Below, one piece after another: positions 37,650 to 50,730 of a stretch of 64,000 bases of DNA (position 1 is the first letter of the stretch; the number at the start of each line of letters is the position of its first letter). The DNA lies in contig CALKUH010000045.1 of assembly GCA_937996795.1 (NCBI GenBank), forward strand, positions 3,541 through 67,540, in the 5' to 3' direction. Position numbers and translations under genes: made by a program. The notes under the pieces are model-generated. The model was not told where the DNA came from and ran no database searches. It worked only from the letters and a program-made list of their open reading frames with translations. Source of the DNA: an uncultured Verrucomicrobiota bacterium (GTDB lineage: Bacteria > Verrucomicrobiota > Kiritimatiellia > CAIVKH01).

Positions 37650-38375
37650 TTGATGAAGTACGCAATTTTAGGGGATATCCACGCGAACCTGGAGGCCTTG
37701 GACCGGGTGCTTGCCGATGCCGCGGAGCATGGGGTGACCCACTACGCCTGCGTTGGCGACATTGTCGGCTACAACGCCAACCCCGTTGAATGCCTCGAGA
37801 AGGTCCGCGCGCTCAAATGCACCTGCGTCCGCGGCAACCACGATCATTACTGCTCGCATCCGGAGACGTTGAACGGATTTCATCCGCTGGCGGCGGATGT
37901 CGTGAGCTGGACACGCAAGCAGCTCACGCCCGAGCAACAGGCGTGGCTGCGCGGCCTCCGCTACGTCAGCCCCGTCGAAACGTTCACCATCGTCCACAGC
38001 ACGCTTGACATGCCGGAGCAGTGGGGCTACGTCTTTGACCGGCTGGAGGCGGAGGCCAACTTCAACTACCAGTCCACGACGCTCTGCTTCTATGGGCACA
38101 CCCATGTGCCGCTCGCCTTTGAGCGCACGGATTCGATTCGTTTTGGCCTCTACACGCGCATCAAGATCGGGCTGGGCAAAAAATATTTCATCAATGTCGG
38201 CAGCGTCGGACAACCGCGCGATGGCGATCCGCGCGCGGCCTACGTCATCTATGACATGATCAACAACGTCGTCGAACTGCGCCGCGTGGCCTACGACATC
38301 GAAAAAACGCAGAAGAAGATCCTGGATGCCGGGTTGCCGGGCCGTATTGCCGCCCGTCTGGCGGTGGGTCGTTGA
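37650..38375 (+). CDS. Calcineurin-like metallophosphoesterase (YfcE/MPP family)
   Basis: It has the ILGDIHAN, GDIVGY and GNHD metal-binding motifs. Confidence 0.8.
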   Translation: MMKYAILGDIHANLEALDRVLADAAEHGVTHYACVGDIVGYNANPVECLEKVRALKCTCVRGNHDHYCSHPETLNGFHPLAADVVSWTRKQLTPEQQAWLRGLRYVSPVETFTIVHSTLDMPEQWGYVFDRLEAEANFNYQSTTLCFYGHTHVPLAFERTDSIRFGLYTRIKIGLGKKYFINVGSVGQPRDGDPRAAYVIYDMINNVVELRRVAYDIEKTQKKILDAGLPGRIAARLAVGR

Positions 38376-39226
38376 GGAGAATCGGGATGTGGTCACGGGT
38401 GCTTGGCCTCGCGGCGCTGGCGGTCGGGTGCGGCACGCTGCAGGCGCGCGCGCAGGCGGTGGATTTTCGCGCGCGTCTCCCGCACGCGGAGGTCCTGGTG
38501 TGCGAGCCGCTGCCGGTGGAGATCACCATCCGGAACAACGGCATGTCGCCGCTTCAGGCCGGCGGCAGCGGTGGCTATGCGCTGGCGTTTGAAGTGCTCG
38601 ATGCGTCCGGCCTGCTGCTCCGCGAACTTCCGCAGTCCGCGGTGCTCGTCCCCGAGGTGATCGAGCCGCAGGCCCAGGTCGTGTTCACGAATGATCTGCA
38701 GGCCCTGTTTCCCGTGGCGCGGCATGCCACGCTGTCCGTGCGCGCCCGCCTGACGGTGGGCAGCCGTTCGTACATGAGCGACAAACTGTTTGTCGACCTC
38801 ATGCCCGGTTCCGAAATTACATGGGTGAACGCCCCCGCCGCCGACGGGGTCCTGCGTCGCTTTTCGCTGCGTTCCTTGAGTCGCGGGAAACGGGACTTCC
38901 TGTTCCTCCGCGTGGAGAATCCGGATGGCTCCCTGTGCTACGGCGCCGCGGAACTGGGCCGGCTGGTGCGCATGGGCGAGCCCCGCCTGGAGGTGGACAG
39001 CCGCGGGAACGTGCACGTCCTGCACCTTTCCGCCCCGAACCAGTTCATCCACAGCGTGTTTTCGCCCGAGGGCGGCGCGATCAAGCGCGACGTGTTGACG
39101 GGCGACTTGAGCATGGTGCGGATGGTTGATGACGGGCAGGGCAGCTTCCGCATCGCGGGCGCCGGCCAGGTCGCCCCGCCGCGCGATCCGATTGTCGACC
39201 CCCTCCCGCTGCGCCGCGGCCTTTGA
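38372..39226 (+). CDS. Hypothetical secreted protein or lipoprotein
   Basis: It has a signal peptide (LAALAVGCGT). No recognisable domain was found. Confidence 0.55.
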   Translation: MRRIGMWSRVLGLAALAVGCGTLQARAQAVDFRARLPHAEVLVCEPLPVEITIRNNGMSPLQAGGSGGYALAFEVLDASGLLLRELPQSAVLVPEVIEPQAQVVFTNDLQALFPVARHATLSVRARLTVGSRSYMSDKLFVDLMPGSEITWVNAPAADGVLRRFSLRSLSRGKRDFLFLRVENPDGSLCYGAAELGRLVRMGEPRLEVDSRGNVHVLHLSAPNQFIHSVFSPEGGAIKRDVLTGDLSMVRMVDDGQGSFRIAGAGQVAPPRDPIVDPLPLRRGL

Positions 39227-41871: not shown

Positions 41872-41947
41872 CCCACGCAAGCCATCGTGATCAAGGGGAC
41901 GCCGCAAAGGCAGCCGCGATGGGGGGCCTTTCATCGAAGGACGTGAC

Positions 41948-43438
41948 ATGGACCAGGACGCCGCGGAAGTCGTTGTCGATGCCCAGATCGAGGAATTTCA
42001 GTCGTTGCGCGGCTCGCGCCCCGGCACAGATGCCAACGTCATCATCCAGATCGCCGTCGGTATTCTGGGTACGCTCATCGTTGCGTTCGGCGTGACTCCG
42101 CTCAATGACACCAAGGCCGACTATCTGTACGGCATCGTCAACGAACGTGGTCCCGTGCAATACCTCGAACTGCTGATGTCCTTCATGGTGGGCGCGCTGA
42201 TTGTCCTCAAGAGCAAGATCGTGAATCGCAACCTGCGGGTGATTGCGTCCAACCCGCTGCCGCCTGAACTCGACTTGAACGACGACAACGCGCTGCAGGC
42301 GTTCCGCGATTCCCTGCCGCAGCGTCCTGAATTTGAGTGGAGCATCCTGCTGAACCGGCTCGACCGGGCGCTTGCCCTCTGGCTGGGCAGCAAGGACATC
42401 GCGCGCGTTTCCTCGTATGTCCAGATGGAGTCTTCGCGCGACCAGAGCTCCTCCGACTCGTCGTATGCCATTGCAAAGGTGCTGATGTGGGCCATCCCGA
42501 TCCTGGGCTTCATTGGTACGGTGCAAGGGCTGGGCGTGGCCGTCGCCGGCTTCGGCGTGCTGGGCGGATCGGCCGACGTCAGCGCGATCAAGTCCGCCAT
42601 CGGCCAGGTGACCGTGGGTCTCGGCGTCGCCTTCGACACCACGCTGCTGGCCCTCGTGCTCACCACGCTGCTGATGTTCCCGCTGACGTCGTTCCAACGA
42701 AAAGAGGAAAACCTCTTCGGCGAAATCGACAACTACCTGGACGACGTCTTGCTCGCCCGCCTCCCGTCGCCCGAGCAGAAGCCCATCGTGATCGAGAACC
42801 TGGAAGACTCCATCGAGGCCGCCTTCCGGCGTTATATCCCGGACCCGGACCGCTACGATGAGGTCTTCACCCGGTCGATCGAGAAAGCCGCGCTGACGGT
42901 CGAGGAGCGCTTCGGCGGGCTGTCCACCAAGTATGAAGCGACCTTGCGCGACCTCAGCCAGCGCGTGGCGGATAATTTGAAGAGCGCGGGCGCCACGGTT
43001 GAGCAGAGCATGCGCGGGATTGCGGACGACCTGCGCAAGCAGGACGAACACGCGATGGAGTCGCGCCGCAAGGCCCTGGCCGATGAAGCCAACCGCTTCA
43101 AGGATGTCGTCGCGGATATTAATTCCACCGCGGATCGCGTCGCGCAATCCTACCGGCAGGGCGCCGAAGCCGTGCAGAGCGCCACCAAGGACACGGTCCA
43201 GCAGGCCCTGTCCGCGACGCGCGACCTGACCGGTCGCATGGAAGAGGTTTCCCGCCTCGCCGCCAACATCGACCAGTTGCTCAAGCTCAACCAGTCGATC
43301 AACCAGAGCATGAGCACCGTCGCCAGCTCGGACCAGTTCCGCGCCACGTTGGAAGACCTGCGGAAGCATTTGTCCACGACCACCGAGTTTTGCGCGCGCC
43401 TGAGCAAGCCGCGCGTGATCACGTTGCGCGAAGAGTAA
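41948..43438 (+). CDS. MotA/TolQ/ExbB-family proton channel with a roughly 190-aa C-terminal coiled-coil tail
   Basis: It has four predicted TM helices including the conserved PILGFIGTVQGLGVAVAGF block. Its heptad-rich tail resembles MCP/TolA-like coiled coils. Confidence 0.7.
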   Translation: MDQDAAEVVVDAQIEEFQSLRGSRPGTDANVIIQIAVGILGTLIVAFGVTPLNDTKADYLYGIVNERGPVQYLELLMSFMVGALIVLKSKIVNRNLRVIASNPLPPELDLNDDNALQAFRDSLPQRPEFEWSILLNRLDRALALWLGSKDIARVSSYVQMESSRDQSSSDSSYAIAKVLMWAIPILGFIGTVQGLGVAVAGFGVLGGSADVSAIKSAIGQVTVGLGVAFDTTLLALVLTTLLMFPLTSFQRKEENLFGEIDNYLDDVLLARLPSPEQKPIVIENLEDSIEAAFRRYIPDPDRYDEVFTRSIEKAALTVEERFGGLSTKYEATLRDLSQRVADNLKSAGATVEQSMRGIADDLRKQDEHAMESRRKALADEANRFKDVVADINSTADRVAQSYRQGAEAVQSATKDTVQQALSATRDLTGRMEEVSRLAANIDQLLKLNQSINQSMSTVASSDQFRATLEDLRKHLSTTTEFCARLSKPRVITLREE

Positions 43439-43459
43439 TCGCACGAATCGGAATCGAGC

Positions 43460-43984
43460 ATGGCCGAAGCGGCAAAAACGGACTTTTCGTCCTTCATGTG
43501 CGTGATTCTGATGCTCACCGGCTGCCTGGTGACCATCATGATCAGCAACATCATCATCATTGCCGCCAACCCCGAAAACGTGCAGATCACGTCGATCATT
43601 CCCCAAGGTATGGACCCGGCCAATGACAAGCCGGTCGAGGACAGCCAGGGCAACATCATCAAGAGCCCGTGGTATCTGGAGGTCTGGCGCGACCGCATGA
43701 TCATCCACCCCGGCGGCGAGGAAATCGGCGTGCGCGAGTTGGAGCAGAAGGACAACGCGTTCGAGCAATTTTTGACACGTGTCCAGGCTCGCAACGACCG
43801 GCAGTACATCGTTCTCCTCGTGCGCGAGCATGGCGCGACGATCGCCCGCAAGTTGAAGAAGGTGATCCGCGACCGGAAAATCGACATCGGTATGGACCTG
43901 CTGTATTCGACGGAGCCCATCAAACTTCGGAACGTCAGCACCGGTGCGGTCGAGACCGCAACCGCCACCGCGGCGGGGACCTAG
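43460..43984 (+). CDS. ExbD/TolR-like protein, first paralog (single N-terminal TM)
   Basis: It has an N-terminal TM FSSFMCVILMLTGCLV and an ExbD-like periplasmic fold pattern. Confidence 0.6.
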   Translation: MAEAAKTDFSSFMCVILMLTGCLVTIMISNIIIIAANPENVQITSIIPQGMDPANDKPVEDSQGNIIKSPWYLEVWRDRMIIHPGGEEIGVRELEQKDNAFEQFLTRVQARNDRQYIVLLVREHGATIARKLKKVIRDRKIDIGMDLLYSTEPIKLRNVSTGAVETATATAAGT

Positions 43985-43993
43985 GAAACCGTC

Positions 43994-44635
43994 ATGGCAA
44001 AAAAGGCCGATGCTACGGGCGCGATCAACCTCGACTCCTTCCTGGATGTGTTGACCTGCCTGCAGGGCATCCTGATGCTGGTCATCATCGCGACAGGCAT
44101 TGATGCCGCGCAGACCAAAGTCCTCGTGCCGACGCCCATCGAGAAACAAAGCACCAAAATTCCGATCTACCTGGAATGCCGTGGAAACCTGATCTACCCG
44201 ATGGAAGTGACCGATCTGGCCCGCCAGGCGCGCATGTCGATGATGCAAATGAGCCAGCAATCGCAGGGCGACCAGACCAAATTGATGCAGGCGCTCGCGA
44301 CGACACGCGTCACCAACGAGTATTATGAGGTCGACCTCACGTATTATCTGCTGGGTCAATTGGTGATCAAGACCCGCGCGGATTCAAACGCCACCGGGCA
44401 CGCCCTCGATGAACGCTCAACGTTCTCCACGGACAACTTCCTGGTCCGCCTGCTCAAGACGGTGGACAAGGACAAGCAGCGCTTGGTGCTGGTGGTCCGG
44501 GACGACAGCTTCAACGTGTTTAAGGTGGCCCAGCGGCTCGCCTTCCTGGCGCAACTGGAACTGGGCGTGGAGATCTACGACGCCCGCGAGCTGCTGCGCT
44601 TCACCCAGCAGGGCGCCCTGATCACCGGCAGTTAA
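43994..44635 (+). CDS. ExbD/TolR-like protein, second paralog
   Basis: INLDSFLDVLTCLQGILMLVI matches the ExbD/TolR N-terminal signature. Confidence 0.7.
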   Translation: MAKKADATGAINLDSFLDVLTCLQGILMLVIIATGIDAAQTKVLVPTPIEKQSTKIPIYLECRGNLIYPMEVTDLARQARMSMMQMSQQSQGDQTKLMQALATTRVTNEYYEVDLTYYLLGQLVIKTRADSNATGHALDERSTFSTDNFLVRLLKTVDKDKQRLVLVVRDDSFNVFKVAQRLAFLAQLELGVEIYDARELLRFTQQGALITGS

Positions 44636-44708: not shown

Positions 44709-45143
44709 ATGTCCGTCATGGAAGCCAAAGAGATCATGCAGATTCTGCCGCATCGGTATCCGATGCTGCTTGTGGACCGTGTCATTGAATGCGACTTCAA
44801 ACAGCGCATCGTCGCGGTCAAGAACCTGACCATGGGCGAGCCCTGCTTCCAGGGGCATTTCCCGAACGACCCGATCTTCCCGGGCGTGCTGCAACTGGAG
44901 GCGATGGCCCAGACCGGCGGCATCCTGATGAACAAGGCCTTCGGACATGAAGGCCGCATCGCGTATTTCCTCGCCGTGGACAAGGCCCGGTTCCGCCGCA
45001 TCGTCCGGCCCGGCGACCAGATCCGCATCGAAGTAGTCTTCCAGCGCGCGCGCCTGGGCATGTCGAAAATGCAGGGCCGCGTCTTTGTCGGTGACGAGCT
45101 GGCGAGCGAGGCCGAGATCATGTTCGGCTATGGGGACGCCTGA
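44709..45143 (+). CDS. fabZ: 3-hydroxyacyl-ACP dehydratase
   Basis: It has the LPHRYPMLLVDRV motif, the GHFP catalytic His and a hotdog fold. Confidence 0.9.
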   Translation: MSVMEAKEIMQILPHRYPMLLVDRVIECDFKQRIVAVKNLTMGEPCFQGHFPNDPIFPGVLQLEAMAQTGGILMNKAFGHEGRIAYFLAVDKARFRRIVRPGDQIRIEVVFQRARLGMSKMQGRVFVGDELASEAEIMFGYGDA

Positions 45144-45146
45144 TTC

Positions 45147-45920
45147 ATGGCCGACATTCATCCCTCCGCCGTGGTTGCGCCAGGCGCTCAGCTGGCCACG
45201 GATGTCGTGGTCGGTCCCTTCTGCTGTGTCGGCCCCGAGGTGTCGCTGGGCGCGGGAACGCGCCTGATCTCGCATGTGGTCGTGAGCGGCTTTACGCGCG
45301 TCGGGGCGGGATGCGTGTTCTTTCCCTTTGCCAGCATTGGCGTGCAGACGCAGGACCTGAAGTTCAAGGGCGGGCGGCCCGGCACGGTGATCGGCGACCA
45401 TACGACCGTGCGCGAGAACGTAACGATTCACGCGGCGACGGACGACGGCAACCTCACGGTGATCGGATCGCACGGCCACATCATGGCCTACGCGCACGTC
45501 GCGCATGACTGCCGCATCGGCGACCACGTCATCCTGTCCAACGGCGCGCAACTCGCAGGCCATGTCCAGGTCGAGGACCACGCCATCGTCAGCGCGATGA
45601 CCGGCGTCCACCAGTTCGGACGGGTGGGGCGCTACAGTTTTATCGGCGCGTACTGCAAGGTCACCCAGGACGTGCCGCCGTATATGCTGGTGGATGGCGT
45701 GCCCGCCCGCGTGCCGGCGCCCAATGCAGTCGGCCTGAAGCGCGCGGGATTCAGCGAGGAAACGCAGCGCGCGCTCAAGCAGGCCCACCGCCTCTTGTTC
45801 CGCAGCGAGCTCGCCACCGGCGAGGCGCTCCGGCAAATTGAGGAAACCGTGGAGCAAACGCCGGAGGTGCGCCATCTGGTCGCCTTCGTGCGCGCGTCCG
45901 AACGGGGCATCGTGAAGTGA
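45147..45920 (+). CDS. lpxA: UDP-N-acetylglucosamine O-acyltransferase
   Basis: It has a hexapeptide-repeat LpxA sequence with a C-terminal helical domain. Confidence 0.9.
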   Translation: MADIHPSAVVAPGAQLATDVVVGPFCCVGPEVSLGAGTRLISHVVVSGFTRVGAGCVFFPFASIGVQTQDLKFKGGRPGTVIGDHTTVRENVTIHAATDDGNLTVIGSHGHIMAYAHVAHDCRIGDHVILSNGAQLAGHVQVEDHAIVSAMTGVHQFGRVGRYSFIGAYCKVTQDVPPYMLVDGVPARVPAPNAVGLKRAGFSEETQRALKQAHRLLFRSELATGEALRQIEETVEQTPEVRHLVAFVRASERGIVK

Positions 45921-47839
45921 AGAAGCTGGCCCATCTTGTTTTGGCGCTGGCGCTGGCGGTCGCGCCGGTCGCGCCGCTGGCTGCGCGGGCGGAAGAGGGG
46001 CCCTACGTCAATTTCAGCTTCGACCAGGTGGAGATTCCCGTCCTTGTGAAGCTGGTCGGCGAAATGACCGGCCGCCGGTTCGTCGTCGGCGAGGAAATCA
46101 CCGGCCGCGTCACGGTCGTAACCCCGCAGCGGATCCCGGTCAAGGATGCCTATCCGCTGCTCGTGTCCATCCTCGAATCGCGCGGACTCGGCATCCTGGA
46201 GCAGGGCGGATTGCACCGCGTCATCCTGCTGCCGGAACGGGCCGTTCCCGGCGCCACCGTGATGATCCCGGAGGATGACAGCACGAATGCCGTGGGGTTG
46301 GTGACCAAGCTGATCCGCGTGCAGCACGTCAGTGTCTCCGAGTTGCGCCGCCTGCTGGAACCGCTTGTGCGCGGCGGCAAGTCCGGCGCGCTCGCGGCGT
46401 TTCCGCCCACGAATCACCTGATCATCACGGACACCGCCGAGAATGTGCGCCAGATCGAGCGCATCATCGGCGAGCTCGACAAGCCCGGCGCGGCGCGCGT
46501 CGTCGATGTGATCCCGCTCAAACACGCCGCCCCGGATGACCTGGCCCGCCAGCTTGTCGCCGCCATGAAGGGCGGCGCGAGCGCCGGCGAGAAAGTATCG
46601 CGTCATCTCCAGCAGGTGGGCGAGGGCATGGGCGCGCTGCCCGCGGACGTCGTGGTCGTGCCCGCGCCCCGCGCGAACAGCATCATCATCGTGGGCACCC
46701 CGGTGCAGTTGAACGAACTGCGCGAAATCGTCGCGCGCATGGATGTCGAGGCGCCTTCGGGGTACGGGCGGCTGCACGCGATCTTCCTCAAATACCTGTC
46801 CGCCGAGGAGGCGGCCAAGAGCCTCACCGCGCTGCTGGCCAAGACCGACAAGGAGCGCGCGCCCATCGCCATCGAACACAACCTTGCGAACAATGCGCTG
46901 GTGGTCGATGCGAGCCCGCAGGATTTCGAATTCCTCAAAAAACTCGTCGAGCAGCTCGACCAGGTGCCGCAGCAGGTCATGGTGGAGGTCCTGCTGGCCG
47001 AGGTCGCCGTCGGGCGCTCCCTGGATCTCGGCGTACGCCTGGCGACGGTGGACCAACCGAAGGACGGTTCCACGACGGTGATTGGCGGCAGTCAGCCCTC
47101 GGAGACGGATGCCGTGATGAATTTCCTCGAGACGGGCGCCTTCCCCCAGGGCCTCGCAATCGGTGTCGCGCGGGGCACCTACACCGATGCGGCGGGCAAT
47201 ATCGTTCCAAGCATCCCGATCCTGATCCAGGCCCTCGCGCAGAATCGCGACGTCAAGATTCTCTCCAATGTTCCCTTGTGGGCGCAGAACAACGTCGAGG
47301 CCAGCGTCAGCGTCGTGGAGAACATCCCGATCCTGCGTTCGACGATCGAAGGCGGGGCGGGCACCTCGCGCGATGTCATCCAGAACATCGACCGCATCGA
47401 TGTCGGCATCAAACTGAAACTCACCCCGCACGTGAATCCCGACGGCGACATCACGCTCCAACTCAACCCGAGCATTGAGGCGATTGTCGATGAAGGCCCT
47501 GCGGATACGCAATTCGCCCCGTCCATCGCCAAGCGCGAGGTCTCCACCACCGTCACCCTGCCGAACAAGGCCACCGTTGTGATCAGCGGCCTCATTCGCG
47601 AAGACCGCGTGAACATCGTGAGCAAGGTCCCGCTGCTGGGCGACCTGCCGCTGATCGGCTTCCTGTTTCGCAGCAAGAGCGAGCGCGTCCAGCGCACGAA
47701 CCTGTTGATCTTCGTGACGCCGCACATCGTGACCGACATGGCGGCGGCGCGCGCGATGCAGCAAAAATTGCAGCAACAAACGAAAATCGATGTCGAACCG
47801 GCGACGCTCAACATGGATGCGCCGGTCCCGTTGAAGTAG
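45917..47839 (+). CDS. Outer-membrane secretin of the GspD/PilQ family
   Basis: It has a signal peptide, repeated Secretin_N domains and the C-terminal VPLLGDLPLIGFLFRS...LLIFVTPHIV motif. Its GTG start overlaps the lpxA stop. Confidence 0.85.
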   Translation: MKKLAHLVLALALAVAPVAPLAARAEEGPYVNFSFDQVEIPVLVKLVGEMTGRRFVVGEEITGRVTVVTPQRIPVKDAYPLLVSILESRGLGILEQGGLHRVILLPERAVPGATVMIPEDDSTNAVGLVTKLIRVQHVSVSELRRLLEPLVRGGKSGALAAFPPTNHLIITDTAENVRQIERIIGELDKPGAARVVDVIPLKHAAPDDLARQLVAAMKGGASAGEKVSRHLQQVGEGMGALPADVVVVPAPRANSIIIVGTPVQLNELREIVARMDVEAPSGYGRLHAIFLKYLSAEEAAKSLTALLAKTDKERAPIAIEHNLANNALVVDASPQDFEFLKKLVEQLDQVPQQVMVEVLLAEVAVGRSLDLGVRLATVDQPKDGSTTVIGGSQPSETDAVMNFLETGAFPQGLAIGVARGTYTDAAGNIVPSIPILIQALAQNRDVKILSNVPLWAQNNVEASVSVVENIPILRSTIEGGAGTSRDVIQNIDRIDVGIKLKLTPHVNPDGDITLQLNPSIEAIVDEGPADTQFAPSIAKREVSTTVTLPNKATVVISGLIREDRVNIVSKVPLLGDLPLIGFLFRSKSERVQRTNLLIFVTPHIVTDMAAARAMQQKLQQQTKIDVEPATLNMDAPVPLK

Positions 47840-47848
47840 GGAACCCCC

Positions 47849-49540
47849 GTGCGCATCGGCGAAATCCTGGCCGCGAAAGGCTATGCGCAGCCGGCCCAGA
47901 TCGAGGCGGCGTTGCGCGAACAGCAGGAGCAGCAGCCCCGCGCGCTGCTCGGCGAAATTCTCTGCCGCCGCAAGGTCATCACCGAGGCCCAGCTCGCCGA
48001 AGCGCTGGGCGAACAGTTCGGCCTGCCGTTTGTCCCCGCCATTGAACCCGTCTGGCTCCAGCCCGCCCTTGTCGAGCGCCTCTCGGTGGACTGGGCCCGC
48101 ACGCACCGCCTGCTCCCGATTTTGCGCGAAGGCCAGGTCTTTGCACTGACGGCGGACCCTGCCGCCGTCGCACGCCTCGATGAACTCTCGCTCCTGCTCG
48201 GTCGCGATGTCGTGCCCCTCATCACAACGTCCGCCGAGCTGCGCCGCGCGATTGATCTCTGCTATGCGCAGCGCGCCACGCCTGGCTGGGCCGCGGAATC
48301 CGCGCCCGACCACGCCGAGACGCCCGCGGAGAGCCATGCCGAGGATCTGCTGCGCGCAACCGAGGATGCGCCCGTCGCGCAATACGTCAACGGGCTGTTG
48401 CTCGATGCGGTGCGCCGCCGCGCCTCCGACATCCATCTCGAGCCGTTCGAGTCCCACCTGCAGGTCCGGTTTCGCGTGGATGGCTTCCTCTACGCGCAGC
48501 CTCCGCCGCCCAAATCGATTGAGTCCGCGTTGGTCTCCCGCATGAAGGTGATGGCGCGGCTCGACATCGCCGAGCGGCGCCTGCCACAGGACGGCATGGC
48601 CAAGGTCCGCGTCGGCCCGCGCGAGTACGACATCCGCGTGTCCACCGTGCCTGTCGCCGAGGGTGAGCGCGTCGTGCTGCGCCTGCTGAACCAGGAATCC
48701 CTGCTGCGTCCGCTCGGAACGCTGGGCATGCCCCCGGCCGTTGAATCCGATTTCCGCCGCGTGCTGACCGAACCCAACGGCGTCATCCTCGTGACCGGTC
48801 CGACCGGAAGCGGCAAGACCACCACGCTCTATGCCGCGTTGCAGGGCCTCGACACGCAGCGCCTGAACGTGATGACGATCGAAGACCCCATCGAGTACCA
48901 GTTGCCCGGCATCGCGCAGATCCAGGTGAAGCCGAAGATCGGCCTCACCTTCGCCCAGGGCCTGCGCCACATCCTGCGCCAGGACCCGGATGTGATTCTC
49001 GTGGGCGAAATCCGCGACGCGGAGACGGCGGAGATCGCCATCCGCGCCTCGCTCACCGGGCACCTCGTCTTCAGCACGCTGCACACCAACGATGCCCTCT
49101 CCGCGGTGATCCGCCTCGTGGACATGGGCGTGCCGTCCTACCTGCTTTCCTCCGCCTTGCGCGGCTGCCTCGCGCAACGCCTCGTCCGCCAGCTCTGCCC
49201 GACCTGTCGCAAGGCGTCGTTCCCCAACGAAGACGAGCTGCGTTCCCTCGGTCCGCATGCCGAGCGCCTGCGCGGCAAGGTCATCTGGCGTCCGGTCGGC
49301 TGCCCCGAGTGCCTCGGCGGCTACCGCGACCGCTGTGGCCTTTATGAATGGATCCGGTTCGGCGCCGACTGGGAATCCGCCCTGCGCGCCGGCGCGGACG
49401 GCGACGCCCTGCGCAAGCGCCGTCGCGAGATGGCCGTGCCCTCCTTGCTGGACGACGGGTTGGAGAAGGTCCGCAAGGGCGTCACCTCGCTGGAGGAAGT
49501 CCTCCGCACCGTCAGCGCGGACGCCGCATCCGTCCCATGA
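47849..49540 (+). CDS. Type II secretion/type IV pilus assembly ATPase (GspE/PilB family) with an N-terminal GSPII_E_N domain
   Basis: It has Walker A GPTGSGKTT, Asp and His boxes, and the C-terminal tetracysteine CPTC...CPEC. Confidence 0.85.
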   Translation: MRIGEILAAKGYAQPAQIEAALREQQEQQPRALLGEILCRRKVITEAQLAEALGEQFGLPFVPAIEPVWLQPALVERLSVDWARTHRLLPILREGQVFALTADPAAVARLDELSLLLGRDVVPLITTSAELRRAIDLCYAQRATPGWAAESAPDHAETPAESHAEDLLRATEDAPVAQYVNGLLLDAVRRRASDIHLEPFESHLQVRFRVDGFLYAQPPPPKSIESALVSRMKVMARLDIAERRLPQDGMAKVRVGPREYDIRVSTVPVAEGERVVLRLLNQESLLRPLGTLGMPPAVESDFRRVLTEPNGVILVTGPTGSGKTTTLYAALQGLDTQRLNVMTIEDPIEYQLPGIAQIQVKPKIGLTFAQGLRHILRQDPDVILVGEIRDAETAEIAIRASLTGHLVFSTLHTNDALSAVIRLVDMGVPSYLLSSALRGCLAQRLVRQLCPTCRKASFPNEDELRSLGPHAERLRGKVIWRPVGCPECLGGYRDRCGLYEWIRFGADWESALRAGADGDALRKRRREMAVPSLLDDGLEKVRKGVTSLEEVLRTVSADAASVP

Positions 49541-50730
49541 AAACGTTTGCGTTTCGCGGTTATGCGCGGGGGGGCGAGCGCACGCGCGGCCTAATCGAGG
49601 CGATGGATCCCAAGGAGGCGCGCGAGAAACTCGCCGCGCGCGGCGTGCTCGCGGAATCCGTGAATCCCGCCGGCGCGCACGGCGGTCGCCGCCGCTTCGG
49701 TTCCGCTGATCGATCCTCCCTCTATCGTGAACTTGGTTCGCTCCTCGCGTCGGGCGTGCCCGCCGTGGCCGCCCTCGACATCCTGCTCGACGCCCAGCCG
49801 CGCGAGCACATCGCGGCCCTGCTGGCCGCAGTACGCGATGCGCTGCGCGAAGGCGCCGGTTTCGCCCAGGCCCTGCCGGCGGCCTGCCCGGACATCACCG
49901 AATTTGAGATCGCCCTTCTCCTCACCGGCCAGCGCACCGGCCAACTCGGCGCCGTGCTCGCCCAGATGGCCGACTACCTCGACGAACAGCGCCGCCTGCG
50001 CGAGAGCATCCAATCCGCGCTGCTCTATCCGATGCTGGTCATCGGCCTTTCGCTCATCGTCGGCGTCGTCATGATGCTCGTCGTCCTGCCGCGCCTGTCC
50101 AACCTGTTTGAAGAGACCGGCGCGCAACTGCCCTGGCTGACCCGTGCGCTCCTGTGGATCGGCGGCCCCGGCCGCCTTCCGATCCTTGGCGTGCTGGCGG
50201 TTGTCGCCGGCGGTGTCTGGTGGAACGTGCGCAGCCTTCGCCGTACGCCGGAATCGCGTGTGCAGTGGGAACAGCGCTGGATGCGATGGCCGCTGATCGG
50301 CGTCGCCTTCCGCCACGTTGTCAGCATCCGTTTCACGCGCACCCTGGTCGTCCTGCTGCGCGGCGGCGTGCCGCTTGTCGAAGGCCTGCCGCTCGCGGCG
50401 CGGGCCAGCGGCAGCCGCTGGCTCGACCAGGAGATGAAACGCGGCGCGGAAACCGTGCGGCAGGGACGGCCCGTCGCCGCCGCGCTCGCGGATGCCCCGT
50501 GGGTCGGCGCGACCCTTCCGCCGTGGTACCGTGCGGGTGAAGCCAGCGGCGATCTCAACGGCATGCTCGAACAAGCCGCGCGCCGCTTCCAGGAACAATG
50601 GGAAACCCTGCTTCAACGCGTCGTCCGCCTCATGGAACCCGCGCTGATCCTGATGGTCGGCGTCTTCGTCCTGCTCGTCGCCCTCGCCATCCTGATGCCG
50701 CTGCTCTCGCTCAACCAGATGGCGTTCTGA
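49537..50730 (+). CDS. Inner-membrane platform protein (GspF/PilC family)
   Basis: It has two T2SSF repeats and three TM segments. Its ATGA overlaps the gspE stop. Confidence 0.8.
   Translation: MKTFAFRGYARGGERTRGLIEAMDPKEAREKLAARGVLAESVNPAGAHGGRRRFGSADRSSLYRELGSLLASGVPAVAALDILLDAQPREHIAALLAAVRDALREGAGFAQALPAACPDITEFEIALLLTGQRTGQLGAVLAQMADYLDEQRRLRESIQSALLYPMLVIGLSLIVGVVMMLVVLPRLSNLFEETGAQLPWLTRALLWIGGPGRLPILGVLAVVAGGVWWNVRSLRRTPESRVQWEQRWMRWPLIGVAFRHVVSIRFTRTLVVLLRGGVPLVEGLPLAARASGSRWLDQEMKRGAETVRQGRPVAAALADAPWVGATLPPWYRAGEASGDLNGMLEQAARRFQEQWETLLQRVVRLMEPALILMVGVFVLLVALAILMPLLSLNQMAF

Follow-up and report, generated by a model that had tools for sequence, protein, structure and literature searches.

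ZorA-ZorB was reported to be a unique 5:2 motor that has a long tail inside the cell, and the tail of ZorA was solved as a right-handed, pentameric bundle in which the inner leucines L250, L254, L258 and L261 are spaced 4-4-3 (PMC11946911). In PVC bacteria, clusters with the order TPR, tolQ-like, two tolR-like and vWA carry TPR and vWA transducer genes, according to the part of PMC12204202 that deals with them. Phage defence and the flagellar motor are to date the only known cases of rotation delivered to a cytoplasmic target. In the AglR-AglQ-AglS complex, involved in Myxococcus gliding, one TolQ-like A subunit is associated with two different, adjacent TolR-like B subunits, and AglR is devoid of a long tail. 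Here we describe a locus of three genes, encoding subunits A, B1 and B2, in a window of 64 kb, i.e. the whole stretch of DNA that was analysed, and we compare it with these systems.

A channel domain of the MotA/TolQ/ExbB type is followed by a helical tail

The initial annotation of the window suggested a 4-TM MotA/TolQ/ExbB architecture with a glycine-rich TM3, a loop of about 100 residues between TM2 and TM3, and a long helical tail made up of the last ~190 residues. We observed that a single, uninterrupted open reading frame encodes the 496 residues of subunit A. Its 4-TM domain, of the MotA/TolQ/ExbB type, leads through an invariant linker block into the helical tail (about 190 residues), as follows:

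41948..43438, + strand: subunit A, MotA/TolQ/ExbB-type protein with a cytoplasmic tail, 496 aa, ATG start, stop codon included
42035..42211, + strand: TM1 (residues 30-50), short periplasmic loop and TM2 (71-88), hydropathy maxima 2.52 and 1.76
42212..42472, + strand: cytoplasmic TM2-TM3 loop, residues 89-175 (87 residues), 10 K+R and 12 D+E
42473..42691, + strand: channel core, TM3 176-205 (WAIPILGFIGTVQGLG) and TM4 221-248 (GLGVAFDTTLLAL), invariant in 53 distant relatives
42764..42937, + strand: membrane-proximal linker block, residues 273-330 (PSPEQxPIVIENLEDSIEAAFRRYIPDPDRYDEVFTRSIE...), near-invariant columns
42836..43165, + strand: proximal tail, residues 297-406, long helix (AlphaFold2 helix 300-402) with 4-4-3 (hendecad) spacing
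43166..43390, + strand: distal tail, residues 407-481, helices, period near 3.4-3.5
43391..43435, + strand: C-terminal tip motif, residues 482-496, CARLSKPRVITLREE, invariant in orthologues

Four hydrophobic segments were detected by hydropathy, at residues ~30-50, 71-88, 176-205 and 221-248. The AlphaFold2 model has helices 27-48 and 69-101 at TM1 and TM2 (pLDDT 75-85) and three short helices, 113-125, 127-131 and 133-148, in the TM2-TM3 loop, where R137, R140, W145 and other residues are invariant among the orthologues; the measured length of this loop is close to the first estimate. The Pfam model MotA_ExbB (PF01618) gives a weak but passing match with residues 146-259 (26.3 bits for a gathering cut-off of 22.9), and is also matched by 51 of the 53 distant relatives. 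The glycine-rich TM3 block, WAIPILGFIGTVQGLG, is the signature of the family, P184, G187, F188, G190, T191, V192 and G194 being invariant in the 53 distant relatives, as are the motifs GFIGTV and AFDTT. The last two TM helices carry the P-x-x-G-x-x-G-T motif and the Thr residues expected of the ring that lines the pore, and WAIPILGFIGTV is invariant. When aligned with TolQ, T191 pairs with T145, and in the same alignment T231/T232 are at most one residue away from T178.

We also compared the monomer model of subunit A with the PDB by Foldseek. ExbB, TolQ, ZorA, MotA or PomA chains account for 47 of the 50 best matches, with E-values that are all 8e-3 or weaker. Target TM-scores range from 0.41 to 0.65 for ExbB, TolQ and ZorA and are lower for most of the MotA and PomA chains; the value reaches 0.65 with TolQ, and ZorA (8vvn_D) is at rank 5. 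Subunit A has the MotA/ExbB/TolQ channel fold and its signature residues, and the proposed architecture is borne out by the hydrophobic segments, the Pfam match, the invariant block and the fold.

The tail has a fixed length and a conserved tip

The linker region 273-330 is the most conserved part of subunit A. Almost all of its columns are invariant in 13 sequences with identities down to 51%, and it is recognisable also in the cyanobacterial relative (L051). The peptide EATLRDLSQRVADNL begins at residue 330. The tail itself covers approximately residues 297-486, where AlphaFold2 predicts helices 300-402, 410-459 and 462-486, in agreement with the tail as initially annotated. The heptad-like character ascribed to it is found only in the last ~90 residues, with a hydrophobic period near 3.4-3.5; the first ~110 residues (297-406) are hendecad-like, with a period of 3.62-3.68 and a narrow hydrophobic stripe (about 3 of 11 positions). 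In the tails of relatives, 234 of 423 significant windows have a period of 3.62-3.72. The tail had also been called a low-complexity region, a description that does not fit the invariant block at its start and the motif FCxRLSKPRVITLREE, invariant among orthologues, at its end. The conserved motif LSKPRVITLREE closes the tail, and the ending KPR-x-I-x-L-x-E is also found in cyanobacterial and other relatives.

From anchor to anchor the tail measures 189 aa in 100 of 105 orthologues, with exceptions of -18, -11 and +44; the 44-residue insertion of some orthologues is located in the distal tail (407-481). As read from the aligned sequences, these changes of -11, -18 and +44 residues preserve the register. 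In the AlphaFold2 monomer the tail is of low confidence (pLDDT 38-62) with breaks at 403-409 and 460-461, so that a folded-back arrangement is possible. Searching the PDB with the profile of the orthologues gave helical-bundle and apolipoprotein matches only, which we regard as compositional. Part of the similarity of the tail to ZorA, MCP and apolipoproteins is compositional.

Two paralogous B subunits, of which one carries the aspartate

Downstream of subunit A are the genes of two small proteins:

43460..43984, + strand: subunit B1, 174 aa, divergent ExbD/TolR-like protein with one N-terminal TM helix, without TM Asp
43994..44635, + strand: subunit B2, 213 aa, one N-terminal TM helix and an alpha/beta periplasmic domain (AlphaFold2 pLDDT 82)

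These genes had been annotated as two ExbD paralogs, and profile comparisons agree with this. By hhalign, the B2 profile matches E. coli ExbD with a probability of 73.6% (E 2.9e-5, Asp aligned) and TolR with 57%; the B2 family profile matches ExbD 7ajq_F and MotB 6ysf_A, again with the Asp aligned, and in iterative searches B1 and B2 each recover the other. B2 contains a conserved Asp18 (nt 44045-44047) and Thr21 in its TM helix; Asp18 pairs with ExbD D25 and TolR D23, and this proton-carrying Asp is kept in 70 of 70 relatives. B2 has the layout of an N-in single TM helix with Asp, followed by a periplasmic domain that starts with a beta-strand. The layout of B1 is the same, but S, C or N replaces the Asp in most relatives. 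In B1 itself, Cys14 (nt 43499-43501) occupies the expected position of the TM Asp; among 74 relatives, 67 have S, C, N or A and five have Asp at this position. Judging from these alignments, the lack of the Asp in B1 is a family-wide trait and only B2 has kept it. To our knowledge, a motor with a single Asp has no proven precedent.

The divergence of both proteins is considerable. No Pfam domain, including the ExbD model, was found in B1, B2 or their cyanobacterial and planctomycete relatives. Searching PDB sequences with the single B1 and B2 sequences gave chance matches only, and with the B1 family profile no match. Foldseek comparison of the B2 model with the PDB returned nothing significant, with TolR at a probability of 0.47 and no OmpA-like match. 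We conclude that B1 and B2, two paralogues that span the membrane once with the N-terminus inside, are very divergent relatives of ExbD/TolR. The relatives from Planctomycetota and Luteolibacter have coiled-coil linkers of ~100 residues in B1/B2 and Pro-rich ends in B2, which suggests that B1/B2 reach across a wide periplasm.

The N-termini of B1 and B2 are rich in K and R, consistent with the N-in orientation, and together with the ExbB/TolQ fold match of subunit A they support the standard topology. This topology, the usual one for the fold, places the C-terminus after TM4 in the cytoplasm, whereas TonB and TolA act across the periplasm. The tail of subunit A therefore cannot replace TonB or TolA, as had been proposed. 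The 1:2 complex initially suggested is also at odds with the 5:2 stoichiometry that would be expected by analogy with known motors.

The three genes form the cassette of a large family

The profile of the tailed family is matched by 3587 cluster representatives, most of them of 400-1000 aa with the same N-terminal domain, and N- and C-terminal extensions are frequent in non-flagellar A subunits (PMC12505986). The statement that long tails are otherwise rare cannot be maintained. At least 593 species genomes carry a member of the family; they belong to Kiritimatiellae, Verrucomicrobiae, Lentisphaerae, Planctomycetota and Cyanobacteria. Subunit A has more than 870 homologues, and the matches listed are of 494-546 aa with 50-100% identity and 94-100% query coverage. 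In ~80 loci from five phyla (81 with the window), A, B1 and B2 are present in 79, 71 and 72, respectively; their order A-B1-B2 is constant in all clades sampled and no other gene is conserved throughout. In 2.9 million viral contigs we detected one weak relative of the family. The family is large and unnamed, and its genes are widespread as core genes in Kiritimatiellae, other PVC bacteria and cyanobacteria; a literature search found nothing on ExbB of Kiritimatiellae or on ZorA-like proteins.

Whether such tails are common in ordinary ExbB orthologues was a question raised by the initial annotation. The tail is universal in the orthologous group, but this group is not ordinary ExbB, since no ExbB or TolQ model of NCBIfam matches; for ExbB, TolQ and MotA, none of these models matches subunit A at E <= 1.

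Envelope genes surround the cassette

At the identical locus L001, the neighbours are genes for a 2-hydroxyacid dehydrogenase, a SurA-like PPIase, fabZ, lpxA and gspDEF. In the window, divergent surA-like and lepB genes lie upstream of the cassette, and downstream is the following array:

44709..50730, + strand: fabZ-lpxA-gspD-gspE-gspF, from the Pfam annotation of the identical locus L001

The synteny with fabZ-lpxA-gspDEF is found in 12-20 related loci and is a conserved context of the Kiritimatiellae orthologues only. The array is outside the universal cassette, with which it is possibly co-transcribed. Promoter and terminator scans gave counts at the chance level, for example six terminator-like sites for 6.5 expected. 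We detected no TonB- or TolA-like open reading frame in the 64-kb window, and none of the ~80 loci revealed a conserved TonB/TolA-type transducer gene beside the cassette. The gene context, with surA-like and lepB on one side and fabZ-lpxA-gspDEF on the other, argues for a housekeeping role, probably in relation to the envelope, and not for phage defence.

ZorA is the closest known relative of subunit A

ZorA had been put forward for comparison, a choice that proved apt: among NCBIfam and PADLOC families subunit A matches ZorA alone, and no other solved 5:2 motor is retrieved with the family profile, which aligns with ZorA over TM3-TM4 and the start of the tail. The channel core is the part that aligns with Shewanella ZorA (8vvn_C). 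The scores are low, with 24.8 bits for ZorA_2 (cut-off 100) and 16.9 for ZorA_1 (cut-off 190) in NCBIfam, and E-values of 3e-6 or weaker for the PADLOC models. By hhalign, subunit A matches E. coli ExbB with 12% and TolQ with 59%, in the TM core only. ZorA is the closest known protein to subunit A.

As in ZorA (PDB 8qyd, 8vvn), a MotA/ExbB-type A subunit directly continues into a long cytoplasmic helical tail; the hydrophobic 4-4-3 spacing and the conservation of tail length are common to both. The tip of the tail is functionally conserved in ZorA and, going by its motif, would be so in subunit A. The two proteins differ in that subunit A has four predicted TM helices, for three named in ZorA (PMC11946911), and a tail of ~190 residues instead of ~500. 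ZorB forms a homodimer and has a domain that binds peptidoglycan, whereas here B1 and B2 would by analogy form a heterodimer with one Asp, and the OmpA-type cell-wall domain was not found in B1/B2 (Pfam) or in the Foldseek search with B2. Unlike Zorya, the cassette is vertically inherited and belongs to the core genome, not to a defence island, without ZorC/D effectors, zorE or zorF/G beside it.

ExbB-ExbD and TolQ-TolR provide the best fold matches to the TM domain of subunit A, and B2 can be aligned with ExbD/TolR over its TM helix and first strand. However, subunit A has an extra N-terminal TM helix and its 190-residue tail, the cassette has two non-identical B subunits with the Asp in one only, and there is no linked TonB or TolA gene. 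The likeness to AglRQS, compared by description (PMC12505986), is limited to the gene arrangement; Kiritimatiellae are not known gliders and no Glt-type partners were found near the cassette. The TPR and vWA genes of the PVC clusters do not flank the cassette, and the part of PMC12204202 that describes these clusters mentions no tail.

A proposed tailed motor with cytoplasmic output, and its alternatives

On balance, we favour the reading that A, B1 and B2, as a three-gene cassette, belong to a large family of ion-driven 5:2 motors that has no name yet and follows the plan of ZorA, and in which the tail carries the output to the cytoplasm. By analogy, five A subunits would be arranged around one B1-B2 heterodimer, which its periplasmic domains may anchor to the cell wall or to a partner in the envelope. 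Ions passing the single Asp site, in B2, would rotate the A pentamer, and the five tails, bundled into a putative right-handed coiled coil of ~25-30 nm, would rotate with it. The tip motif KPRVITLREE could engage a cytoplasmic partner, so that a tail of fixed length would convey rotation or a signal into the cytoplasm. The output of such a motor would be cytoplasmic, as for ZorA and MotA, unlike that of TonB/TolA across the periplasm. More tentatively, the family may be a class of tailed rotary motors with housekeeping tasks that has not been recognised before and is either the sister or the ancestor of Zorya ZorAB. Its B1-B2 axle would be asymmetric, with one proton-binding Asp, and a pentameric coiled-coil shaft of fixed length would bring PMF-driven rotation to a cytoplasmic target, which in PVC bacteria and cyanobacteria would serve the biogenesis of the envelope or of membranes.

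A conventional Ton/Tol energiser, whose output would cross the periplasm by way of the B1/B2 domains or of an unlinked transducer (TonB, TolA or vWA type), and whose tail would be an appendage for assembly, localisation or regulation, is conceivable but in our opinion doubtful. ExbB/TolQ is the label of subunit A in public annotations, B2 is ExbD/TolR-like, the B1/B2 linkers and Pro-rich ends of the Planctomycetota and Luteolibacter relatives agree with a periplasmic output, the neighbours of the cassette are envelope genes, and other PVC motors couple to vWA transducers according to the same part of PMC12204202. In addition, the iron literature gives the names exbB, exbD3 and exbD4 to Synechocystis sll0477-0479 (PMC8634477), which may belong to the family; Synechocystis is not represented in the list of 120 homologues of the cyanobacterial relative. 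However, the ExbB and TolQ models of NCBIfam fail to match subunit A, no transducer gene is conserved beside the cassette in any clade, the 64-kb window has no detectable TonB- or TolA-like open reading frame, and Tichowtungia, a cultured member of the same phylum, is reported to be without TonB/TolA. Moreover, the strict conservation of length, register and tip is hard to reconcile with a passive appendage. It is distinctly unlikely that the tail instead lies on the inner leaflet, or reshapes it, by amphipathic 11-residue repeats comparable to those of apolipoproteins, perilipins and alpha-synuclein, linking the motor to lipid or membrane homeostasis. The period of 3.67 residues, the repeated matches to apolipoprotein families and the position of fabZ-lpxA directly downstream would fit, as would the MinD-like basic ends (e.g. 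RRGWFSLFGRR) present in 22 of 128 cluster representatives scored, from other branches. Against this, the hydrophobic stripe is as narrow as a coiled-coil core, the clade of the window ends in the beta-strand-like KPRVITLREE without a membrane-targeting end, and the tail of its nearest relative, ZorA, with the same spacing, was solved as a pentameric bundle (PMC11946911).

We consider a divergent Zorya-type anti-phage system with effectors encoded elsewhere very improbable. Only ZorA models, weakly, were matched among the curated families, and the tailed architecture is in common; but the scores are far under the ZorA cut-offs, the OmpA-like domain of ZorB is absent, no zorC-G-like genes are nearby, and the place among housekeeping genes is kept across orthologues of 50-100% identity. 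Likewise, the occurrence of the family in at least 593 species genomes of few phyla is lineage-bound and not patchy as for mobile defence, and viral contigs almost lack it. Membership of Zorya itself was rejected on the ZorA scores, the neighbourhood and this near absence from viral contigs. As for an assembly artefact, in which a frameshift would have fused a channel gene with a coiled-coil gene, there is hardly any chance of it: the identical protein is found on independent JGI, NCBI, ENA and Logan assemblies, the reading frame is single, and the junction region 273-330 is the most conserved one. The separate frameshift-made reading frame that the initial annotation had envisaged is excluded, and a fusion refuted, by the conserved junction and by the listed homologues, which are full length (94-100% coverage).

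The ZorA-like tailed plan is now seen in thousands of non-defence proteins encoded by core genes of whole phyla. If the tail transmits rotation or a signal, as in the motor with cytoplasmic output that we favour, membrane rotary motors acting on cytoplasmic targets would be a general bacterial strategy and not the peculiarity of one immune system, and Zorya might then have branched off from a housekeeping machine for use in defence. A heterodimeric axle with a single Asp would be a natural test of the proton sites needed by a 5:2 motor. Members of the family are found in cultured cyanobacteria, Anabaena cylindrica (AFZ61242.1) and Stanieria cyanosphaera (Sta7437_2383), and could open it to experiment.

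A tailed MotA/ExbB-type subunit found in several phyla

The three genes of the cassette, A and the two small ExbD/TolR-like genes B1 and B2, and the array they belong to are:

41948-43438 (+): A, a single unbroken 496-aa ORF that starts with ATG
43460-43984 (+): B1, 174 aa, one N-terminal TM helix
43994-44635 (+): B2, 213 aa, one N-terminal TM helix
41948-50730 (+): array of eight genes on the same strand, A first, then B1, B2, fabZ, lpxA, gspD, gspE and gspF, separated by -4 to 73 bases

Hydropathy analysis indicated four membrane segments in A (residues ~30-50, 71-88, 176-205 and 221-248), and residues 146-259 match the Pfam MotA_ExbB model weakly, at 26.3 bits, above the gathering score of 22.9. 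In an AlphaFold2 model based on 13 homologues, residues 30-270 are modelled confidently (pLDDT 75-85), and long helices (300-402, 410-459 and 462-486) with low confidence. When this model was compared with the PDB by Foldseek, nearly all matches were ExbB, TolQ, ZorA, MotA and PomA chains, the top target TM-scores (up to 0.65) being those of TolQ. With hhalign, the A orthologue profile gave 59% against E. coli TolQ, placing T191 on TolQ T145, and 12% against E. coli ExbB; the ExbB, TolQ and MotA models of NCBIfam did not match A. The initial annotation, which described a MotA/TolQ/ExbB channel with a long tail, was therefore correct in outline. An 822-aa antisense ORF (41891-44359, -) that extends over A and B1 is a shadow of the GC-rich coding strand, and annotating it as a gene would be wrong. 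Similar shadow ORFs cluster across the relatives' loci (clusters 3, 4 and 9 of the locus ORF clustering).

A has 874 matches among 5.8 billion proteins. The homologues listed (50-100% identity) come from Kiritimatiellae MAGs under the generic name 'MotA/TolQ/ExbB proton channel family protein', and all are 494-546 aa long with a query coverage of 94-100%. A protein identical to A is present on independent assemblies, and the channel-tail junction (residues 273-330, PSPEQxPIVIENLEDSIEAAFRRYIPDPDRYDEVF...) is the best-conserved part. A fusion of channel and tail by a frameshift, which the initial annotation had listed among the possible refutations, is thus excluded.

We also searched 1.84 billion cluster representatives with the A orthologue profile: 3587 matched at E <= 1e-3, 2173 at E <= 1e-10 and 476 at E <= 1e-30. 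Of the representatives listed, most match over the N-terminal domain (profile positions ~20-280) and most contain the exact GFIGTV motif; total lengths are mostly 400-1000 aa. When one genome of each GTDB species was scanned, at least 593 had a relative; the best 80 of these belong to Kiritimatiellae, Verrucomicrobiae, Lentisphaerae, Planctomycetota and many cyanobacteria (Anabaena, Richelia, Tolypothrix, Pleurocapsa and Waterburya). These share 26-31% identity across almost the whole length, including the end of the tail. Long tails are therefore common on such proteins and not rare as first supposed, in agreement with a recent survey in which N- and C-terminal extensions are frequent in non-flagellar A subunits (PMC12505986). 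The family to which A belongs is large, has no name and extends over several phyla; our literature search found no description of a tailed A-B1-B2 family. Three Kiritimatiellae MAGs each carry two paralogous cassettes (L006+L042, L005+L047, L017+L054), ~30% identical to each other, and the tails of the second paralogues are longer (lengths of A as called, 521-971 aa).

The tail is ZorA-like

Among curated families, A matches only the ZorA models, all far below cut-off (24.8 bits against the 100 required for NCBIfam ZorA_2; E 3e-6 or weaker for those of PADLOC), and any one of them matches at most 21 of 53 distant relatives, with E down to 7e-14. With a family-wide profile, ZorA provided the only 5:2-motor chains among 60 listed PDB matches (Shewanella 8vvn_C, 1.5e-8; E. 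coli 8qyd_A, 7e-8), and the Shewanella alignment spans the GxxGT motif, TM4 and part of the tail. These scores are partly due to coiled-coil composition, since apolipoproteins and chemoreceptors score like ZorA against A profiles.

The conserved hydrophobic positions of residues 297-406 have a period of 3.62-3.68 and a 4-4-3 spacing, that of a hendecad, and in the last ~90 residues the period shifts to 3.36-3.5; the heptad-like pattern initially proposed thus holds approximately for the end of the tail and fails for residues 297-406. The ZorA tail forms a pentameric, right-handed coiled coil, and its inner rings (L250, L254, L258, L261) show the same 4-4-3 spacing (PMC11946911). Among the representatives' tails, 91% of 77-residue windows are significantly periodic, 234 of these 423 windows at 3.62-3.72. 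A is a MotA/ExbB-type subunit whose cytoplasmic tail is ZorA-like.

The middle of the tail varies among orthologues and its end, FCxRLSKPRVITLREE, is invariant. The distance between the PDPDRY and KPRVIT anchors is exactly 189 residues in 100 of 105 Kiritimatiellae orthologues; the exceptions (-18, -11 and, in three cases, +44) are all compatible with a kept hendecad/heptad register. A constant length, changes that keep the register and the conservation of the tip indicate that the tail is a structural shaft and not a disordered or, as previously described, low-complexity appendage. They also count to some degree against a simple hairpin, since one predicted helix contains the 44-residue insertion. 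Many representatives share the terminal KPR-x-I-x-L-x-E motif, and other branches end in KQVVIQ...RRGWFSLFGRR or KPLDVQVHF. Ends of the RRGWFSLFGRR type, which we take to resemble the MinD membrane-targeting helix, suggest that the tip returns to the membrane in those branches. Such basic amphipathic ends (also KRGLFGRIFRG) occur in representatives P0165-P0268, which carry in addition a ~70-residue N-terminal extension.

B1 and B2 are asymmetric paralogues

Neither B1 nor B2 has a match in Pfam, NCBIfam or PADLOC. In the fetched loci, iterative searches seeded with B1 or with B2 each recover both sets, so the two are paralogues. The B2 family profile matches ExbD (7ajq_F, E 6e-4; 6tyi_Y) and MotB (6ysf_A, 8ucs_A) in the PDB, its 'nldSFlD' aligned with ExbD 'INVTPFID'. 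By hhalign, B2 and E. coli ExbD gave 73.6% probability (E 2.9e-5) and B2 and TolR 57%, with the Asp aligned both times; B1 is weakly like ExbD (18%) across the periplasmic strands. The two ExbD paralogues of the initial annotation are hence confirmed as distant homologues. B2 is modelled confidently (pLDDT 82), its periplasmic domain being alpha/beta, and Foldseek returned no significant structural match for the model (TolR at rank 9, probability 0.47).

In the TM-region alignment, the membrane Asp is present in 70/70 B2 sequences, followed three residues later by Thr in 69/70, and in only 5/74 B1 sequences, which otherwise have S (41), C (14), N (8), A (4) or P (2); B1 of the window has Cys14. 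B1 and B2 are thus an asymmetric pair of ExbD-like partners. In L068, L076 and L084 (Planctomycetota), L079 (Luteolibacter) and L004, the TM helix and globular domain of B1/B2 are joined by predicted coiled-coil linkers of ~100 residues, and B2 has Pro-rich ends (e.g. GPPPPPPKPTTPAPAAPAKKPP) recalling the spacers of TonB/TolA, a possible adaptation to a wider periplasm.

Genomic context

When the ORFs of ~80 loci were clustered, no genes but A, B1 and B2 (in 79, 71 and 72 loci) proved to be conserved throughout, and wherever all three were found they stood in the order A-B1-B2. In 12-20 related loci the cassette is likewise followed by fabZ-lpxA-gspD-gspE, but not in a 55%-identity relative (L002) or in other clades. 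There are 6 terminator-like sites, against 6.5 expected by chance. Upstream of A, on the other strand, are genes for a 2-hydroxyacid dehydrogenase and a SurA-like PPIase. Cyanobacterial cassettes stand alone, and a search of 2.9 million viral contigs turned up a single weak relative. This pattern is that of a vertically inherited, self-contained housekeeping module and not of a defence island; in Kiritimatiellae the cassette is perhaps envelope-related.

lpxA shares 4 bases (45917-45920) with gspD, an unusual translational coupling of a lipid A gene to a secretin gene, and no pseudopilin genes adjoin the window's secretin-ATPase-platform trio (gspD, gspE, gspF). In the paralogue group L022-L036 (~40% identity), a secreted ~660-aa NHL-repeat protein is encoded between A and B1 (e.g. 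L035 8382-10376), with a GT2 glycosyltransferase and a large polytopic membrane protein upstream. In L038-L049 (Verrucomicrobiae), the cassette is preceded by an ORF that is RecO-like by eye and another conserved ORF, and followed by two rounds of a 340-420-aa uncharacterised protein and a HEAT-repeat protein (PBS-lyase-type). At 38372-39226 (+), a conserved hypothetical protein of ~280 aa, without Pfam match and with an apparent signal peptide, adjoins a metallophosphatase gene, a position kept in the 55%-identity relative (L002 3882-4727).

Orientation of the tail and a possible motor

In all solved members of the MotA/ExbB fold, to our knowledge, the part that follows the final TM helix is cytoplasmic. 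Basic residues flank TM2 and TM4 of A, its TM3-TM4 loop is short and the N-termini of B1 and B2 are KR-rich; judged from these sequence features, A and B fit an N-in orientation with the A tail in the cytoplasm. TonB and TolA act across the periplasm, so such a tail cannot replace them as the initial annotation had imagined; the B subunits are the parts that could span the periplasm. No TonB/TolA-type partner is linked to the cassette, as the initial annotation had noted: none is conserved beside the cassette among the ~80 loci and none is detectable within the 64-kb window. Tichowtungia, a cultured member of the same phylum, is reported to have neither TolA nor TonB (PMC12204202).

By analogy, we lean slightly towards a rotary motor of five A subunits, one B1 and one B2 (A5:B1:B2), in which the tails would bundle and turn with the pentamer and the conserved tip would pass rotation or a signal to a cytoplasmic partner. 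The main alternative, a periplasm-directed energiser of the Ton/Tol kind with the tail as an accessory, seems rather unlikely. We regard as improbable that the tail is a membrane-surface 11-mer region, and as very improbable a Zorya-type defence role, against which stand the housekeeping pattern and the near absence of relatives from viral contigs. Synechocystis sll0477-0479, named exbB, exbD3 and exbD4 (PMC8634477), have the same three-gene layout as the A-B1-B2 cassette and could be members of the family.
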